From positions 344,499-376,498 of the forward strand of contig JAWAHN010000001.1 in the NCBI GenBank assembly GCA_038889235.1: DNA of 32,000 nucleotides, in the 5' to 3' direction. The notes beneath the pieces were generated by a model that saw only the letters and a program-made list of their open reading frames with translations, was not told the DNA's origin and did not search any database. This stretch comes from Candidatus Jordarchaeales archaeon. GTDB lineage: Archaea; Asgardarchaeota; Jordiarchaeia; Jordiarchaeales; Freyrarchaeaceae. The position numbers were made by a program, and so were the translations under genes. Positions 5,976 to 14,348 of the stretch are shown here, in pieces (positions within the stretch are counted from its first letter, which is position 1; each line of letters opens with the position of its first letter).

Positions 5976-6087
5976 GTTTTGGGGGCAGAGGGGAAGAGGG
6001 AGCTGCTTGTTGTAGTGCTTTGTAGGTTCTTGGTTGAGAAAAAGGGTTTTTATTTCTCTGTTCGCCTGTTGGGTTTGGTGGAATGTT

Positions 6088-7479
6088 TTGATCCCTGTTC
6101 ACGTGGGACTTCTGGGACATGTAGATCATGGGAAGACGTCTCTGGCGCGAGCTCTCAGCGAGTACGTTTCCACTGCTGGTCTTGACAAGCACCCCCAGGC
6201 TAGGGAGAGGGAGATGACGATAGACTTAGGTTTCACTTTCTTTAGGCTTGACGGTTTTCTGGTGACGTTGGTGGATGCTCCGGGGCATGCTGACCTCGTG
6301 AGGAACGTTGTGGCGGGCGTTAACATCATCGACGCAGCGATACTCGTCGTTGCAGCAGATGAGGGTCCTAAGGTTCAGACTGGTGAGCACATATTGATAC
6401 TTCACACTTTCGGAATTTCGAGGGTTGTCGTGGCTATTAACAAGGTGGACTTGGTTGGTGAGGAGCGAGTTGCAGAGGTTGAAGAGCAGGTTAGGAGGAT
6501 TCTTAAGGGAACTGTGCTCGAGGGGGCTCCCATAGTGAGGATTTCAGCCGCCACCGGAGAAGGTTTAGAGGAGCTCAAGAGGAGACTTCTCAGCGTTTTG
6601 GATGTCCCGAAGAGGAATTTTGATGGACCGTTCATGATGCCAATAGACCACGCATTCCACGTTAAAGGGGCGGGGACTGTCGTTACTGGGACGGTTCACC
6701 GGGGAGTTGTGAGGGTTGGTGACACCGTTGACCTAATGCCGCTTGGGTTAAGTGTGAAGGTGAGGTCCATTCAGTCCGTCGGGGAGGACAGAGAGGAAGC
6801 TAGGGCGGGGGACAGGGTTGGCGTGGCAGTTTCCGGGGTGGAGCCTGAGAAGATATACAGGGGGTGCTACCTCGGCGCTCCCGGCACTTTAAAGGCTACG
6901 ACGAGGATAATTGCAAGAGTGAAGTTCAACAGGATCTTCAAGTACGCGTTGAAAAGCGGCTCAGACGTGCATTTGACCGTGGGTATGCCGACCGTTCCAG
7001 CCAAAATATACCCGCTGAGAGAGGTTGGGGACGGGGTTTACATCTCCGTGAGGGAGGTTAGGGGTGGCGAGGAGGCGAACTGCTACTTCGTCCTTGGCAG
7101 GGCTGTTGTGGCTGAGGAGGGGATGCCCGTCTTAGTCTCTAAACTCGACCTACCTCCGACGGTTCTTAGGATAGCTGGAGGCGGCAGAGTTGTCGACGCC
7201 AGTCCGGGAAGCGTTAGGCTAGCTTCGGAGAAGGTTAAGAGGGGGGTTGTTAGGATGAGGAAAGGTGAAAGGTGGGTTGTGAGTGGGCTTGCGTCCAGCC
7301 GCATAGGGGCGGAGAAGCTTGTCGGCGAGTGCGTTGAGGCTGCTGGAGGGGCTAAGGGAAGAATTGTTGAGGCGTTCGGCGGCAGGGGGGATGTGGTGGT
7401 CGAGTTCACGGGAAGCGTTACAGAGGGTGAAGAGGTACACTTAAAGATTCTGAAGTTTAAGGAGGGGGCGCTGCCTTGA
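6088..7479 (+). CDS. selB: Selenocysteine-specific translation elongation factor SelB (archaeal/eukaryotic type)
   Basis: GHVDHGKT, TIDLGF, DAPGHADL, EGPKVQTGEH, NKVD, PIDHAF..KGAGTVVTGT, VRSIQ, and a domain IV GLASS..GAEKLVG segment as in Methanococcus SelB. TTG 6088 preferred over the ORF-track start 6034. Confidence 0.93.
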   Translation: MIPVHVGLLGHVDHGKTSLARALSEYVSTAGLDKHPQAREREMTIDLGFTFFRLDGFLVTLVDAPGHADLVRNVVAGVNIIDAAILVVAADEGPKVQTGEHILILHTFGISRVVVAINKVDLVGEERVAEVEEQVRRILKGTVLEGAPIVRISAATGEGLEELKRRLLSVLDVPKRNFDGPFMMPIDHAFHVKGAGTVVTGTVHRGVVRVGDTVDLMPLGLSVKVRSIQSVGEDREEARAGDRVGVAVSGVEPEKIYRGCYLGAPGTLKATTRIIARVKFNRIFKYALKSGSDVHLTVGMPTVPAKIYPLREVGDGVYISVREVRGGEEANCYFVLGRAVVAEEGMPVLVSKLDLPPTVLRIAGGGRVVDASPGSVRLASEKVKRGVVRMRKGERWVVSGLASSRIGAEKLVGECVEAAGGAKGRIVEAFGGRGDVVVEFTGSVTEGEEVHLKILKFKEGALP

Positions 7480-8795
7480 TGGAACTGGAAAAATATGTCT
7501 CCGACGTCCTTCCGAGGAGTATGGCGTCGCACGGGTTGACGATTTACAAGGCTGTCCTTAAGCCTCTCAAGGTGTTGCTGGAGCAGAGGAGGATTCCGGA
7601 GGAGGGATGGAGGGACGAGGATGTCAGGCTGCTCTTAAAGCTCTTCTCGATGATGGACACGGACAAGGACCCTGAGGCGGCTAGGGTTGGGGAGAGGGAG
7701 GGGAGGGTTGCGTCGCAGCTTGTCGCTGAGCTTGCCGCGGGGTTCTGCCACGGCGTTGGGAGAAGTGGGGATGTGGCTGCTCCTCAGCCGAAGGCTCCCG
7801 GTAGCTCTGCGATGTACGCGCTGGCCAACGCTTTGGCGTCTGATGCTATGAGGAGGTTTGGTGCTCCAAACTTGCGTCACGCTGTCGTTTTGCCGTTGTC
7901 GACTGGGATGAGCATAGCCCTTGCACTGGCAGCCTTGAAGAGAGGGGAGGGAAGGTACGTTGTGTATCCTAGGGTTGACCACAAGTCGCCTATGAAGGCT
8001 GTGGAGCTTGTCGGGCTCAAGTTGAGGGTTGTGGAGGGGGTTGTTGAGGGGGACGCTGTGAGGGTTCCAGTTGAAGACGTCGCCGAAGCAGTCGACGACG
8101 ACACTGCGGCTATAGTTTCGACGACCACGTTCTTCCCGCCTAGGGAGCCAGACAACATTAAGGAGATAGCTAAGGTTGCAAGGGATCTCGGTGTGCCTCA
8201 CATAGTGAACAACGCTTACGGTGTTCAGAGCAGGGAGATAATGAGGATGGTTAGGGGGGCCGTTGACGCGGGGAGAGTTGACGCGGTAATCCAGAGCACT
8301 GATAAAAACTTCCTCACACCGGTGGGCGGCTCTGTAGTCGCCGCCAAGGAGGAAGGGGTGATCGAGAGGATCAGCGGGATGTACGCTGGGAGGGCGACAG
8401 CCGCCCCCGTAGTGCAGTTCCTTGCAGCCATACTCTGCCTCGGAGTTAAAGGATACGAGAGACTTAGGGACGAGCAGGAGGAGAACAGAAGGCTACTCGA
8501 GAAGCTTTTAGGGGAGGTTGCGGAGAGGCATGGTGAGAGGCTGCTGAACGTGTTCAACCCTATAGCGTGCGCCATGACCCTGACCGGGAAGGAGCCGGTG
8601 AAAATTGGCGCCGCTCTCTACAACTTGAGGGTTAATGGTCCTCGCGCCCTGGGGCCAGAGGACTGGGGGGTGTGCTGTAAGAGGTATAAGACAGCCTACT
8701 TAACCATGAACGCCGCTATAGGGGCTAGTAGGAGGGATGTTGAGGTAGCTGTTGAAAGGCTTGAAGTGGCGCTCAGACAAGTGTGTGAAGGATGA
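7479..8795 (+). CDS. spcS: O-phosphoseryl-tRNA(Sec) selenium transferase (SepSecS)
   Basis: VGEREGRV, HGVGRSGDV..PQPKAPGSS, VNNAYG and QSTDKNF (PLP lysine). ATG overlaps the selB stop (TGATG). Confidence 0.95.
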   Translation: MELEKYVSDVLPRSMASHGLTIYKAVLKPLKVLLEQRRIPEEGWRDEDVRLLLKLFSMMDTDKDPEAARVGEREGRVASQLVAELAAGFCHGVGRSGDVAAPQPKAPGSSAMYALANALASDAMRRFGAPNLRHAVVLPLSTGMSIALALAALKRGEGRYVVYPRVDHKSPMKAVELVGLKLRVVEGVVEGDAVRVPVEDVAEAVDDDTAAIVSTTTFFPPREPDNIKEIAKVARDLGVPHIVNNAYGVQSREIMRMVRGAVDAGRVDAVIQSTDKNFLTPVGGSVVAAKEEGVIERISGMYAGRATAAPVVQFLAAILCLGVKGYERLRDEQEENRRLLEKLLGEVAERHGERLLNVFNPIACAMTLTGKEPVKIGAALYNLRVNGPRALGPEDWGVCCKRYKTAYLTMNAAIGASRRDVEVAVERLEVALRQVCEG

Positions 8796-10301: not shown

Positions 10302-10970
10302 ATGGATGAGGCGGAGAGAGTGCTGACCACTATCGAGGACAATATAGGTGTGGAGGCAGCTGCTATACTCAACAGTGAGGGGGGAATAGTTGCCTCACAC
10401 ATTCCCGAAGAGGAGCAAGACGTGATTCAATCATTGCTGTTCTCTCTCGGTGGAACCGCCATCTCAAGCTTCATCGCAGAGGTTGGGGGGAAGGTTGTAG
10501 GCTTGAAGAAGGCTGAGAAGTTCATGTTGGCCATCATGGACAGAGGGGATATTAGAGAGGTGCATGCGAAGCTTGAAAGGGGAATGGTACTCCTGAAGGA
10601 GTTGATTAAGGAGGGAGTGAAGGAGGGGTTGCTTGAGGTCACCGAACGGGCTCCTGTGCATTTGACTCCCGCGGCTAGGAAGGTTGCTATGGAGATGAGG
10701 ATTCCAGCGGAGTATGTGGCTTTCTCTGTTCCGACGAGGAAAATCTTCACCCTTGAGTTTATGGAGAGCAGGGTTTCAAGAGAGCTGGTCGAGAAGTACG
10801 GGGGCTGGGTGATGGACCTCTTCATGATGATTGATGGGGAGAAAAGCGTTGGGGCACTGGCGGAAGTGCTTGGGAGGGATCTAAACGAGGTTGTGGTGGT
10901 CGTGGGCGAGCTTCTTAGGGCGAAGGCCGTTACAATTAAGAGGATAGACATACCACCGCTACGCTCCTAG
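10302..10970 (+). CDS. Roadblock/longin-like domain fused to a C-terminal winged helix
   Basis: N-terminal IGVEAAAILNSEGGIVAS pattern; C-terminal IDGEKSVGALAEVLGRDLNEVVVVVGELL wHTH pattern; SD GGTGAGG. Confidence 0.7.
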   Translation: MDEAERVLTTIEDNIGVEAAAILNSEGGIVASHIPEEEQDVIQSLLFSLGGTAISSFIAEVGGKVVGLKKAEKFMLAIMDRGDIREVHAKLERGMVLLKELIKEGVKEGLLEVTERAPVHLTPAARKVAMEMRIPAEYVAFSVPTRKIFTLEFMESRVSRELVEKYGGWVMDLFMMIDGEKSVGALAEVLGRDLNEVVVVVGELLRAKAVTIKRIDIPPLRS

Positions 10971-11051
10971 TTGGCTGCCGCTTAGACTAAGCAGGCACCT
11001 CGCCGGCTCTCGACAGTATGAGTGGTTCTTGTTTTGGGAAAGAGCTTATGT

Positions 11052-11071
11052 GCAGGATTCCTGCTAAATAT
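11052..11071 (+). promoter_or_regulatory. Palindrome GCAGGA-T-TCCTGC abutting a TATA-like TAAATAT
   Basis: Perfect 13-bp palindrome directly upstream of a TATA-like box, about 30 nt before the coiled-coil gene start. Confidence 0.35.
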
Positions 11072-11099
11072 CGTGTATGAAGAGTGTGATAGGAGTGTG

Positions 11100-11519
11100 A
11101 TGTGCTTGGGAGAGAAGGTGGATAACATACTCTACCAGTTTAAGAGCTTGTCGTTGAAGCTGGATGAGTCGCTTAAGGTTATGGAGAGAAACTTCGAGCT
11201 TCTCTCCGCGTTAATGGAGCGAGTGGAGCAGAGCATTAGGGGGCTTAACGCCACCTTTGAGAACCTTGCGAGAACCATAAAGGAGCAGGAGGAACTTTTC
11301 GCGGAGCAAGTAGAAACTCTCCTCAACACTTTCAACTTCGAGATTAGGGGTTTCAGGGAAGCGGTCAAGCTTGAGACGTTTAATGAGACGAAGGAGATGC
11401 TTGACAGCATCCTTCAAACTATTCGAAGCGAAATAGACCCGCATAGGATTAAGCCCATGATGAGCGAGCTTGTTCAGGCATCTCTTAAGATACTCTCCAG
11501 GGCTGGTGGAGGAAAGTAG
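11100..11519 (+). CDS. Coiled-coil protein, paralog 1
   Basis: All-helical heptad pattern; SD AGGAG at 11091-11095 favours ATG 11100 or TTG 11106 over 11022. Confidence 0.8.
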   Translation: MCLGEKVDNILYQFKSLSLKLDESLKVMERNFELLSALMERVEQSIRGLNATFENLARTIKEQEELFAEQVETLLNTFNFEIRGFREAVKLETFNETKEMLDSILQTIRSEIDPHRIKPMMSELVQASLKILSRAGGGK

Positions 11520-11540
11520 GAGGTTTAGGGGGTCGATGCC

Positions 11541-11978
11541 ATGTCTATTCCCGAGTCTATGATTCCGCTGATAACCCAAGCCTTGAACGACATATATAGT
11601 AAGGTTGATCAGCTGAGTGGACAGGTCGAGAAGTACACCGGGAAAATAGAGAAGTTCACCGAGTTTTTCACCAAGAACATTTCAACGCTCATGAAGGGAG
11701 TGGAGGAGCTGGCGAATATTATCAGGGAGGAAAGGGTGAAAACAATACGGCACTTAAGTGAGTCGACAGTTAACGTGGTTGAGGAAATAAAGAGGCTTCA
11801 ATCAGTTAACATGGAGACCATGCGGAGGGAGACCATCGAACTCCACAGAAAGACTTTAGAAAGCGTGAGGGAGGCCATTTGGGTTCTTCAGACGATGATA
11901 CTGATAAACAGATTTCTTCTAGCCATAGGGGAACTTCAGAAGAAAATGGGGGAAGCGGGGAGCTCACCCGGCCAGTGA
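11541..11978 (+). CDS. Coiled-coil protein, paralog 2
   Basis: Heptad pattern; gapless similarity to paralog 1 (ELANIIREE...EEIK vs ENLARTIKEQ...FEIR). Confidence 0.8.
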   Translation: MSIPESMIPLITQALNDIYSKVDQLSGQVEKYTGKIEKFTEFFTKNISTLMKGVEELANIIREERVKTIRHLSESTVNVVEEIKRLQSVNMETMRRETIELHRKTLESVREAIWVLQTMILINRFLLAIGELQKKMGEAGSSPGQ

Positions 11979-12009
11979 TGGCTGAATGAAAAATGGCGGA
12001 AGTGAGAGG

Positions 12010-12702
12010 CTAGTAGCCCCTCCTGAACAAGTCTGATGGCTTTATCAGGCGTTCTTCCTCCGCGGGTTTCGGTTCCTCGTAAACTGGAGCCGGCATCCTG
12101 GCTGGTTTAGCTGGGCCTGGCTCCTTCCTTCTAACCGTTGGTGGAGGCACCTCTTTCTTTTCCTCCTTTGGAGCCTCTTTTTCTGGCTTCACAACCTTTC
12201 CTTCCCTTATCTGGAGGGCGAGGTTTTCCACTTTCTCGACAAGGTCCTTTATAGCCATTATCTCCATCCCTTTCTGGAGGTTGCTCACGGTCTTCTCTAG
12301 GGCTTCTTCGAGCCTCGAAACCCCCTTCAGCTCGACGCTTTCAACGCGGCTGACCAAGTCTTCTCTGATTTCCTCCATTCTCTTCTCTAGTAGGGAGAAC
12401 CTTTCGTTTAGGAGGCGCTCGACTCTTAGCACGGTCTTCGCCACGTCCTCCATTAAGCTGACTATCATCCGGAGAAGTGCTAGGTCTTCTCTGGTTTCAG
12501 TTTCTTTGACGGGTTTCTCGACGGCAGGCTTTTTTGCGACGACCTCTTCGCTTTTAGCCGCTTCGATCTTAACCATGCTAACGATGTCAGCGCTTTTAGC
12601 AGCGTCCGAAGGTTTGACAGCTACAACAGATGGTTGTTGCCCCTCTGGATTTTCCGGCTTTTCGGGAACCTTCACGGTGGGAGACCCGCTCTTCTCAGAC
12701 AA
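12010..12702 (-). CDS. Coiled-coil protein with Pro/Glu/Lys-rich disordered flanks, paralog 3
   Basis: Central helical region (EDVAKTV..VERLLNE...EEIR) similar to paralog 1; low-complexity termini; ends IKPSDLFRRGY. Confidence 0.8.
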   Translation of the reverse strand: MSEKSGSPTVKVPEKPENPEGQQPSVVAVKPSDAAKSADIVSMVKIEAAKSEEVVAKKPAVEKPVKETETREDLALLRMIVSLMEDVAKTVLRVERLLNERFSLLEKRMEEIREDLVSRVESVELKGVSRLEEALEKTVSNLQKGMEIMAIKDLVEKVENLALQIREGKVVKPEKEAPKEEKKEVPPPTVRRKEPGPAKPARMPAPVYEEPKPAEEERLIKPSDLFRRGY

Positions 12703-13028: not shown

Positions 13029-13511
13029 CTAGAGGGACCAGTACTCGTCTCCGACCCAGTGAAGGTTCTTCACGGCTTTCCCTTTTCCCCCCGCTTTGAT
13101 GGCTTCCGCGTCTAGGAGGGCTTCCCCCACCGCTATGGGTTTCTGGTGTTTTTCGTCGACCACCACTACTAAGGAGCCGGCTTTTACAGACTCGTCGACG
13201 GCTCTTATTCCGGGAAGCATAACGTCTGCACCGTTAGTTATGTGAGGAACTGCACCCATGTCTACGACAATCTTCGGGAGAGTGAATAGGCCGCCGAGAA
13301 GTGATCTGAGCGATGGAAGTAGTCTACCCCCTTTCCTCAGCAGTAGGAGTTGCCCATGGTGGAAGTACACCTCGTCGTCGTTCTCCGTGAACGCCACTTC
13401 TACGTCTTCTAAGGAGATCACTGCTCCTAGAGATTGGTGGAGTTCTTCAGTGAGCCTTTTAACCTCCGATTTTTTGAGAAAGTGCCTCCTCTTCAGCTTC
13501 AAATCACACAC
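13029..13511 (-). CDS. PUA-domain RNA-binding protein (Tma20/MCTS1-like)
   Basis: VVDMGAVPHITNGADVMLPGI, KPIAVG and KGKAVKNLHWVGD motifs. Confidence 0.9.
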   Translation of the reverse strand: MCDLKLKRRHFLKKSEVKRLTEELHQSLGAVISLEDVEVAFTENDDEVYFHHGQLLLLRKGGRLLPSLRSLLGGLFTLPKIVVDMGAVPHITNGADVMLPGIRAVDESVKAGSLVVVVDEKHQKPIAVGEALLDAEAIKAGGKGKAVKNLHWVGDEYWSL

Positions 13512-13517
13512 CGTTCC

Positions 13518-14258
13518 TCAGGGGGGTGAAAGGTTAACTTGTTGGGAGAACTGCCTGAGAAGCTTTATGAGCTCTTCGACCGTTACTTCCTTGGTGACGG
13601 CTAAGGGAATTTTCTCGTTTTCAACCAGGCTCAAGGTTGCAGGGTCGAGTTTTGAGACTCCGTGGAGGATTAATAGGCCGGGCTTATGTTTATTTCCTTT
13701 AATGGTTACAGTGAGGGATCGACCAGTGCTCGCGTTGACCAATATGAGACTTCTCCCGACGGACGCCTGGTAGAGTTTCGCGTAGCCTTCGCTTGAAAGG
13801 TCTTTAAGCATTGCTTTGCTTTCAACGACAATGTACCCTGAAAGTTCTTTGTCGAGCAGCTCACTTGGGGTGAGGGGCTCAGCTCCTATGGCGTGGCAGA
13901 GCCTTTTAGCGCTGACGGGGGAGATAAACTCCCTGGCATCCAGGATTATCGAGGAGGGGATCTCGACGTCCATTAAGCGTCCTAGAGCTGATGTTACAGG
14001 GTTCCCTCTCCTTCCGTCTATGTCTAGCAAGGCTTCGACAAAGCGTTTTATGGTCTTGGTTCCAGGGGACTTCCTCCTGTTAGCCTCGTAATCGCTTATG
14101 ACTGACGGGGATACTTCTAGGTACTCGGCTAGGGTTATCTGGCTTACGTGAAACAGCTCCCTCCACCTTCGCATCACTTTTCCGGGGTCCTCGGCTAGGA
14201 CTATTTCACCGGCTATACGACGGGCAAGCCTCTCCCGGACGTCGACCAGAATGTTCAA
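13518..14258 (-). CDS. XRE-type HTH transcriptional regulator (COG1709-like)
   Basis: RIAGEIVL..DPG..MRRWRELF.VSQ..LA.YL.VSPSVISDYE..RRKSPG. TTG 14258 with SD GGAGG preferred over 14318. Confidence 0.85.
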   Translation of the reverse strand: MNILVDVRERLARRIAGEIVLAEDPGKVMRRWRELFHVSQITLAEYLEVSPSVISDYEANRRKSPGTKTIKRFVEALLDIDGRRGNPVTSALGRLMDVEIPSSIILDAREFISPVSAKRLCHAIGAEPLTPSELLDKELSGYIVVESKAMLKDLSSEGYAKLYQASVGRSLILVNASTGRSLTVTIKGNKHKPGLLILHGVSKLDPATLSLVENEKIPLAVTKEVTVEELIKLLRQFSQQVNLSPP

Positions 14259-14348
14259 AGAGACCCCTCCACGAAGCACTCCCCTTACATATATATTGCA
14301 CGTGTAATAAAAATTCACTGTCGCCTCGAAGGCCTTGGAGGTGTCTTT

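Follow-up and report, generated by a model that had tools for sequence, protein, structure and literature searches.

This study concerns three small neighbouring genes in a 32,000-nucleotide stretch of DNA (hereafter, the window) from a Candidatus Jordarchaeales archaeon (assembly GCA_038889235.1, contig JAWAHN010000001.1, positions 344,499 to 376,498 of the forward strand). The genes encode the helical proteins P1, P2 and P3, which constitute a previously undescribed, Asgard-restricted module of two uncharacterised families, one comprising P1 and P2 and the other P3; no description of such a module was found in the literature searched. P1 (11100-11519, plus strand) is an all-helical protein of about 139 amino acids, paralogous to P2. 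Its longest open reading frame (ORF) begins with a GTG at 11022; a 30-member ortholog alignment begins at the ATG at 11100 and, because the orthologs align from there, we take this ATG as the true start of a protein of 139 residues. P2 (11541-11978, plus strand; 145 amino acids) follows at a spacing of 22 nucleotides. P3 (12010-12702, minus strand; 230 amino acids, delimited by the ORF list and the family alignments) is convergent with P2, and their stop codons are 31 nucleotides apart. A sequence-only reading of the window had proposed three helical ORFs here, and both the ORF list and the ortholog alignments establish them as real conserved genes lying where it placed them.

Gene order and conservation

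In the survey of gene order related genomes are not independent of one another, and the families f1 to f30 are labels of a set of 301 Asgard genomes. All nine loci of the Jord/Freyarchaeia carry the full trio, in the order roadblock-WH gene (a neighbour treated below), P1, P2 and then P3, with P3 convergent in eight of them. The Hermodarchaeia have the full trio in 17 of 19 loci, the remaining two being interrupted by contig ends, and wherever the contig extends the order is one or two genes for actin-related proteins (ARPs), P1, P2 and a convergent P3. P1, P2 and a convergent P3 also stand together, among unrelated neighbours, in a closed Odin-type genome and in lineage f20. On each of two Helarchaeota-type contigs, two complete trios flank a radical-SAM gene; one trio is convergent, whereas the other has been re-ordered to P3, P1, P2, all co-directional with spacers of 1-22 nucleotides. 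Synteny is thus kept in about 40 loci overall, and the conservation of the cluster across Asgard genomes, which had been suggested as a check, is found in Jord/Freyarchaeia, Hermodarchaeia, Odinarchaeia, f20 and Helarchaeota. Because the three families stay together through re-ordering and duplication, there is strong evidence that P1, P2 and P3 would act as one functional unit.

The module appears to be confined to Asgard archaea. Relatives of P2 were detected in 53 of the 301 genomes with a single-sequence query, and a HMMER search of 1.84 billion representative proteins with the P2 family returned only 47 matches at E ≤1e-3, the short proteins among them belonging to this family and the long ones being repeat proteins. 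All named members of the P1/P2 family are Asgard, and the hidden Markov model (HMM) of the P1 family picks up relatives on Odin and Helarchaeota contigs. P3 relatives occur in 89 of the 301 genomes by profile search; with the profiles used none was found in the largest sampled Asgard family (0 of 76) or in several others, which is not proof of absence. Against a collection of 5.8 billion proteins the P3 profile matched 52 clusters, all unnamed or ‘hypothetical’, whose informative names are Freyarchaeota, Helarchaeota, Lokiarchaeota and Promethearchaeota. A few matching records, at 68-73% identity, bear the names Nitrososphaerota, Thermoproteota or Bathyarchaeota, probably through mis-assignment, since the Thermoproteota-labelled contig falls in the window's own family. 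Look-alikes in the ESM Atlas are Asgard hypothetical clusters only.

Contigs about 96% identical to the locus were present in one sediment metatranscriptome library; they extend over portions of P1, P2 and the roadblock-WH gene, with P3 not covered. Their 30 differences divide into 25 synonymous versus 5 non-synonymous ones, which shows purifying selection. As evidence of transcription these contigs are weak, since such libraries may contain DNA, and three hot-spring metatranscriptome runs held no reads of the locus and so provided no test of its expression.

Relationship of P1, P2 and P3

The sequence-only reading had treated all three proteins as paralogues. Family alignments were built from positional orthologs in relatives, one each for P1, P2 and P3, and compared with hhalign, for which the null consisted of 150 versions of the alignment shuffled in 7-column blocks, so that composition and local periodicity were kept; reversed profiles served as a second control. 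P1 and P2 match with a probability of 89.5-90.8% and an E-value of 1.2e-6 to 2e-6 over 103-120 collinear columns, residues 36-138 of P1 pairing gaplessly with residues 11-113 of P2 (residue n of P1 being residue n-25 of P2). The score of 42.8 is reached by 0 of 150 shuffles of the P2 alignment (mean 15.8, standard deviation 3.1, maximum 25.1), and the reversed-profile controls for this pair have a maximum of 30.8. When an HMM of P2 only was run against all genome ORFs and the loci, the P1 orthologs came next, with no other genome ORF at that level. The similarity is visible only with profiles, pairwise BLASTP being non-significant (E 0.23). As the profile score beats every one of the heptad-block shuffles, we conclude from the family alignments that P1 and P2 are paralogues. 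The motif alignment originally drawn for this pair, with its IRGL/ISTL and LETF/METM flanks, is recovered by hhalign in the identical register, at an offset of 25, and the comparison with shuffled controls that had been proposed for it is significant.

P3 gives a different result. Its hhalign comparison with P1 has a probability of 7% and a score of 22.8, against a block-shuffle maximum of 22.4, and that with P2 a probability of 41% and a score of 31.0, against a maximum of 30.1. Both scores, barely above the block shuffles, lie inside the reversed-profile range (controls up to 34, with one self-reverse at 43). Pairwise BLASTP of P3 with P1 and P2 (E 0.27 and 0.018) aligns short segments in different places, and hhalign sets the P3 motif opposite residues 32-58 of P2, 25 residues off the register first proposed. 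The claim of a third paralogue is therefore not supported. P3 is a family of its own, separate from P1/P2.

An unrestricted jackhmmer search that merged P1, P2 and some P3-like proteins was set aside as drift; it also drew in a 767-residue repeat protein. The latter, encoded beyond the window (genome G000, contig C1:207916-210219, minus strand), is Ser/Glu/Lys-rich, wholly helical and perilipin/LEA/apolipoprotein-like, and as it was reached via an iterated P2 search it is treated as profile drift.

Structure of the three proteins

Single-chain AlphaFold2 models were made for two of the proteins, P2 and P3. From 46 sequences, P2 is predicted to be a single continuous helix of 134 residues (7-140), with a mean predicted local distance difference test score (pLDDT) of 92.5 and a predicted template modelling score of 0.42. 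The hallmark of its family alignment is the N-terminal motif I-P-[LF]-[IV]-T-Q-A-x-x-D-[IL]-[YF], and a C-terminal hydrophobic stretch is likewise conserved. The model of P3, from 54 sequences, also contains one helix, of 101 residues (66-166; 12205-12507, minus strand) with pLDDT 93-98, and this helical core coincides with conserved columns that include the motif L-Q-K-G-[MV]-[EQ]-[IV].

On either side of its core P3 is predicted to be disordered. The N-terminal arm (residues 1-65; 12508-12702, minus strand; pLDDT 45-51) is specific to Jord/Freyarchaeia and is absent or unalignable in the orthologs of the Hermod, Odin and Hel lineages. The Pro/Lys/Glu-rich linker on the other side (residues 167-215; 12058-12204, minus strand; pLDDT 45-54) has variable, gap-rich columns; its sequence is not conserved, yet it is present in every lineage. 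It leads to a C-terminal tethered peptide (residues 216-230; 12013-12057, minus strand) marked by invariant columns in the alignments of both the Jord/Freyarchaeia and the Helarchaeota/Lokiarchaeia type. All lineages share one layout of P3, in which a Pro/Ala/Lys/Glu-rich linker of variable sequence joins the helical core to a short C-terminal peptide that is conserved. The ORF list and the low pLDDT of both flanking regions thus agree with the first description of P3 as a convergent gene whose product has disordered arms.

The P3 tail in the window consists of an acidic run followed by L-I-K-P-S-D-L-F-R-R-G-Y. Throughout P3 of the Jord/Freyarchaeia and of the Helarchaeota/Lokiarchaeia type the acidic run is followed by L-[ILV]-[KR]-P-S-[DS]-[LF]-F-G, with L219, P222, S223 and F226 invariant in 54 sequences, and the stand-alone P3-like genes of other Asgard families end in the same motif. 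Model confidence rises slightly in the tail, where a one-turn helix is predicted at residues 222-225. P3 of Hermodarchaeia and Odinarchaeia has other, basic/aromatic tails. A KPSD motif had been reported near both ends of P3: the C-terminal copy is part of the invariant motif, but the N-terminal one is absent from orthologs. We compared the tail with the PIP-box, MIM1, the clathrin box and the FtsZ C-terminal peptide, and its spacing fits none of them convincingly; a WH2-like reading of the Hermodarchaeia tail (W-R-E-R-M-R-E-K-Y-G-L-K-K-K) was set aside as well, being without HMM support.

The hydrophobicity spectra of the alignments peak at 3.60 for P1 and P2 and at 3.70 for P3, not at 3.5, with a resolution of about one spectral unit at lengths of 100-134 residues. 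The periodicity reaches significance in P2 and P3, where power at 3.5 is much lower, and is of borderline significance in P1. A classical left-handed coiled coil with a heptad period of 3.5 was rejected on these peaks. Of the earlier coiled-coil label, the long amphipathic helices stand but the heptad does not, and the spectra place P1-P3 with the long, amphipathic helices of straight bundles or hendecads and not with classical heptad coiled coils.

Searches for known families

Sequence and profile searches of all three families against Pfam, NCBIfam and PDB gave generic helical noise only. With no significant match in Pfam or NCBIfam and no transmembrane segment, the trio remains without a recognised family, as first described, and its supposed unlikeness to CdvA, ESCRT-III and SMC also holds, since neither ESCRT-III/Snf7 nor CdvA nor SMC matched P1-P3 at E up to 1 in these two databases. 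An analogy to BLOC-1/BORC and to SNAREs, drawn in the sequence-only reading, finds no support in sequence. BLOC1_2 (PF10046) has a best E of 0.041 among 14 of 27 P3-family members, at the same level as many coiled-coil families, and does not match P1 or P2; for SNAREs there is no Pfam match to the trio, the only matches being to the N-terminal regions of syntaxin/Sso1 at E 0.02-0.04, which is noise level, and the trio has no transmembrane anchor.

Neighbouring genes

In Hermodarchaeia, 19 loci have one or two actin-related genes on the same strand as P1, ending about 14 nucleotides before it, and the trio there appears to be co-transcribed with them. The encoded ARPs match Pfam Actin with E 9.7e-35 and about 115-120 bits, versus about 460 bits for canonical Asgard actins, and among solved structures the closest to them are actin, dynactin Arp1 and Arp2. 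They are about 340 amino acids long, tandem and divergent in sequence, for example at L056:1367-3522 (also in L057-L064, L068 and L069). The canonical actin gene of Hermodarchaeia is located elsewhere and is seemingly split over two contigs in one genome. An actin gene beside the trio is found in these 19 loci and not in the window or in the Odin, f20 or Hel loci.

The gene upstream of P1 in the window (10302-10970, plus strand) encodes a protein of 222 amino acids with a putative roadblock/LC7-like N-terminus and winged-helix C-terminus. The 130-nucleotide gap between this gene and P1 contains a TAAATAT box (11065-11071, plus strand) 29-35 nucleotides ahead of the P1 ATG; recognised by eye, it is a candidate archaeal TATA box and may provide P1 and P2 with a promoter of their own, separate from the 222-residue gene. 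The first description had labelled the gene roadblock-WH. Both domains are hinted at, but all signals are below threshold: Robl_LC7 (PF03259) with 12.6 bits where the gathering score is 23 (E 0.12), a family of winged helices at E 0.045 and, when a profile of 10 roadblock-WH orthologs was compared with PDB, the Robl_LC7-domain protein 7f8m at E 0.062 over residues 5-60.

Discussion

The reading that we favour, to which we give somewhat less than an even chance, is that P1, P2 and P3 assemble into a heteromeric helical rod and that the tail of P3 serves to dock a partner, perhaps one of the actin family. Each protein would be approximately one long amphipathic helix of about 100-134 residues, or 15-20 nm. 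As long single helices are unstable alone, the three would pack side by side into an elongated heteromeric bundle; we infer an oligomer because the single helices of P2 (134 residues) and P3 (101 residues) make sense only within one. The hydrophobic period of 3.6-3.7 suggests a nearly straight bundle, not a heptad supercoil. The P3 tail would then be a docking peptide tethered on a flexible arm and linking the rod to its partner. That this partner is an actin-family protein is the most speculative step, resting on a single lineage-level association, and it is the leading candidate because of the Hermodarchaeia operon. From the hetero-oligomeric helical scaffold imagined by the sequence-only reading, this proposal retains the single conserved unit of three genes and the single helices of P2 and P3, but neither the three paralogues nor the roadblock link. 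A complex prediction of P1, P2 and residues 66-230 of P3, run with no controls, gave a score of 0.00 and counts for neither side.

A comparable layout is known from arcadin-2, the regulator of crenactin encoded in the crenarchaeal arcade cluster, which has a core, an unstructured linker and a conserved C-terminal element whose last 17 residues dock into a hydrophobic groove of crenactin (PMC5173319). P3 has an equal three-part layout of core, disordered linker and C-terminal peptide in the AlphaFold2 model and the alignments, which makes it a putative arcadin-2-like tethered-peptide regulator of actin by analogy of layout, with actin binding as its conjectural part. Arcadin-2 is a small protein whose gene stands beside that of an actin homologue, and in Hermodarchaeia P3 is clustered with actin-related genes. 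In contrast to arcadin-2, which belongs to Crenarchaeota and has no detectable sequence similarity to P3, the Asgard protein is accompanied by two further helical partners, and the lineage of the window is without a nearby actin gene.

In the WAVE/WASH nucleation-promoting complexes of eukaryotes and in the dynactin shoulder (p150/p50/p24), small helical subunits, some of them paralogous, are arranged in an elongated bundle. One subunit of such a bundle runs into a Pro-rich disordered region with a short actin- or Arp-binding motif. The Hermodarchaeia ARPs, which score best against actin, Arp1 and Arp2, would suit such an analogy, but no homology to any subunit was detected and P3 has no WH2 match.

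Several observations weigh against the rod with an actin-family partner. Jord/Freyarchaeia carry the trio, yet their single actin gene is the canonical one and lies at a great distance; in the genome of the window it is about 650 kb off, and ARPs of the Hermodarchaeia kind are lacking there. The adjacency of actin and trio is one lineage-level event, within one family and two genera, for an effective n of 1. The P3 tail of Hermodarchaeia, moreover, is not of the L-x-K-P-S-D-L-F kind seen in the window, and the partner may therefore vary by lineage. No actin-binding family, WH2 included, was detected in P3: up to E 10, none of the 27 family members matched WH2, in searches whose filters discard weak short matches. 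Nor is the clustering itself found everywhere: the P3-like genes stand alone in family f9 and in an MK-D1-like 4.4-Mb single-contig genome (family f23), and a tandem P2-like pair lies at a separate locus, beside a helical-repeat protein of 277-305 amino acids. Finally, a period of 3.6-3.7 also fits lipid-binding amphipathic helices.

The last point belongs to the main rival, a role at lipid surfaces, which we hold to be on the unlikely side. P1-P3 would in that case coat a membrane or lipid surface as amphipathic helices, in the manner of apolipoproteins, phasins or perilipins, with the tails as anchors, and would be clustered by their common surface. Like those proteins, the trio has amphipathic helices that run on at length without a break; their period lies near 3.6-3.67, which approaches that of an 11-residue repeat and not 3.5. 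Its sub-threshold matches lean to ApoLp-III, apolipoprotein A, phasin and ClyA-type helical families, of which the apolipoprotein/phasin/perilipin group is the commonest, but they are far under the family cut-offs, none is significant and all are typical helical noise. The drift of the iterated search to the 767-residue Ser/Glu-rich helical repeat protein points the same way, as do Band_7 and NfeD genes between two trios on one Helarchaeota-type contig; such membrane-related neighbours, however, do not recur among loci. Several tails are rich in Lys and aromatic residues, as anchors might be, whereas the invariant Pro-Ser core of the tail after its acidic run resembles a protein-docking motif more than a membrane-targeting helix. 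Both the trio organisation and this docking-type tail are foreign to the apolipoprotein, phasin and perilipin families, and the strict co-inheritance of three distinct families would better fit a stoichiometric complex.

A scaffold of three paralogues coupled to roadblock/GTPase signalling, similar to BORC or Ragulator, was the interpretation of the sequence-only reading, and it now seems quite improbable, as does a weaker form in which the roadblock-WH protein of Jord/Freyarchaeia serves specifically to regulate transcription of the P1-P2 operon. It is true that in every locus of that group examined the roadblock-WH gene directly precedes P1 on its strand, adjacent to the trio in 9 of 9, that the C-terminal region of its product is winged-helix-like and that the RNA-library contigs cover it along with P1 and P2. 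However, full-length relatives were found only in f1 and f2, the window's own order, among the 301 Asgard genomes, and the trios of Hermodarchaeia, Odinarchaeia, f20 and Helarchaeota lack the gene, the same slot being taken by actin-related genes in the first of these and by unrelated ones in the others. P1 follows the gene only after 110-160 nucleotides, with the TATA-like box in between; in the window no adjacent gene encodes a small GTPase; and neither the paralogy of P3 nor the roadblock assignment itself has significant support. BLOC-1/BORC and SNAREs do resemble the trio as small, wholly helical proteins acting as heteromeric bundles, but the trio is without a transmembrane anchor, a heptad period or a conserved roadblock link. 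From its distribution, the roadblock-WH gene is best described as a lineage-specific addition, not part of the core of the module, of which it is perhaps a regulator.

A cell-division module is very improbable; by that reading, the end of P3 would imitate the FtsZ C-terminal peptide and either compete for SepF or recruit it. The FtsZ1 encoded in this genome has at its end an acidic run and L-G-I-P-R-L, loosely like the acidic run and L-I-K-P-S-D-L-F of P3, but the likeness covers about six residues with different spacing, too short for statistics, and neither ftsZ nor sepF is a conserved neighbour in any locus examined. That chance alone has brought together fast-evolving helical ORFs of low complexity, with no functional system behind them, can be given next to no credence: pairwise similarities are indeed insignificant and helical proteins draw spurious matches, but the reading is already contradicted by the conservation data, namely three families conserved across Asgard classes with invariant motifs, synteny in some 40 loci and mostly synonymous differences.

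To return to the P1-P3 rod with a docking tail, a wider form of the proposal would make it an Asgard-wide cytoskeletal adaptor, whose P3 tail docks onto the ARPs of its own operon in Hermodarchaeia and onto canonical Asgard actin in the other lineages. We consider this wider form distinctly unlikely; if true, arcadin-2 and the eukaryotic helical-bundle regulators of actin and Arp proteins, such as those of the WAVE/WASH type and the dynactin shoulder, would have a prokaryotic counterpart in it. The module is, in any case, a concrete candidate for a new actin- or ARP-associated complex or, failing that, at least a new conserved structural module, and even if the actin link fails it is still among the better-conserved Asgard-specific gene sets of unknown function. 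Among the genomes with a P3-like gene, the 4.4-Mb one is of the cultured Prometheoarchaeum type.

Additional observations

Further features were noted among relatives of the trio. The radical-SAM gene between the trios of the two Helarchaeota-type contigs (L037:4079-8364 and L038:1143-6663) encodes a B12-binding/radical-SAM protein of about 495 amino acids, and on L038 the Band_7 and NfeD genes lie beside or between the trios. Some P2-like proteins on Helarchaeota-type contigs have 213-221 amino acids, with a Pro-rich linker of their own and a basic tail ending R-L-E-E-M-R-R-K-K-K-L-F-G-K-Y. The Odin-type ortholog of P2 (L013:5844-6257, minus strand) has no ATG, GTG or TTG ahead of its conserved N-terminal motif in the open frame. 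In one genus, four P3-like genes have an in-frame TGA (G017:C2:58771-59382, G054:C2:92206-92799, G155:C5:19763-20359 and G224:C217:4122-4721), one of them a TAA as well, which could be due to recoding, as selenocysteine or otherwise, to sequencing error or to decay.

The helical-repeat protein of 277-305 amino acids that follows the tandem P2-like pair occurs in two distant lineages (L039:5989-6822 and L074:5755-6672), has a faint COG4_N match and ends similarly in both, with K-I-D-K-K-[FY]-K; it may substitute for P3 there. Upstream of the trio in the window, at 6034-8795, a gene for a SelB-like elongation factor overlaps a putative gene for SepSecS, an enzyme of selenocysteine-tRNA synthesis, both recognised by eye. 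A close match of the latter (L074:9494-10870) is located about 2 kb from the tandem P2-like pair in an f9 genome, perhaps as a remnant of synteny. At 13029-14318 on the minus strand, downstream of the promoter region of P3, lie genes for a protein with a PUA domain (E 2.9e-20, plus DUF1947) and for a regulator of the HTH_3 type, which are ordinary neighbours with no conserved association with the trio.

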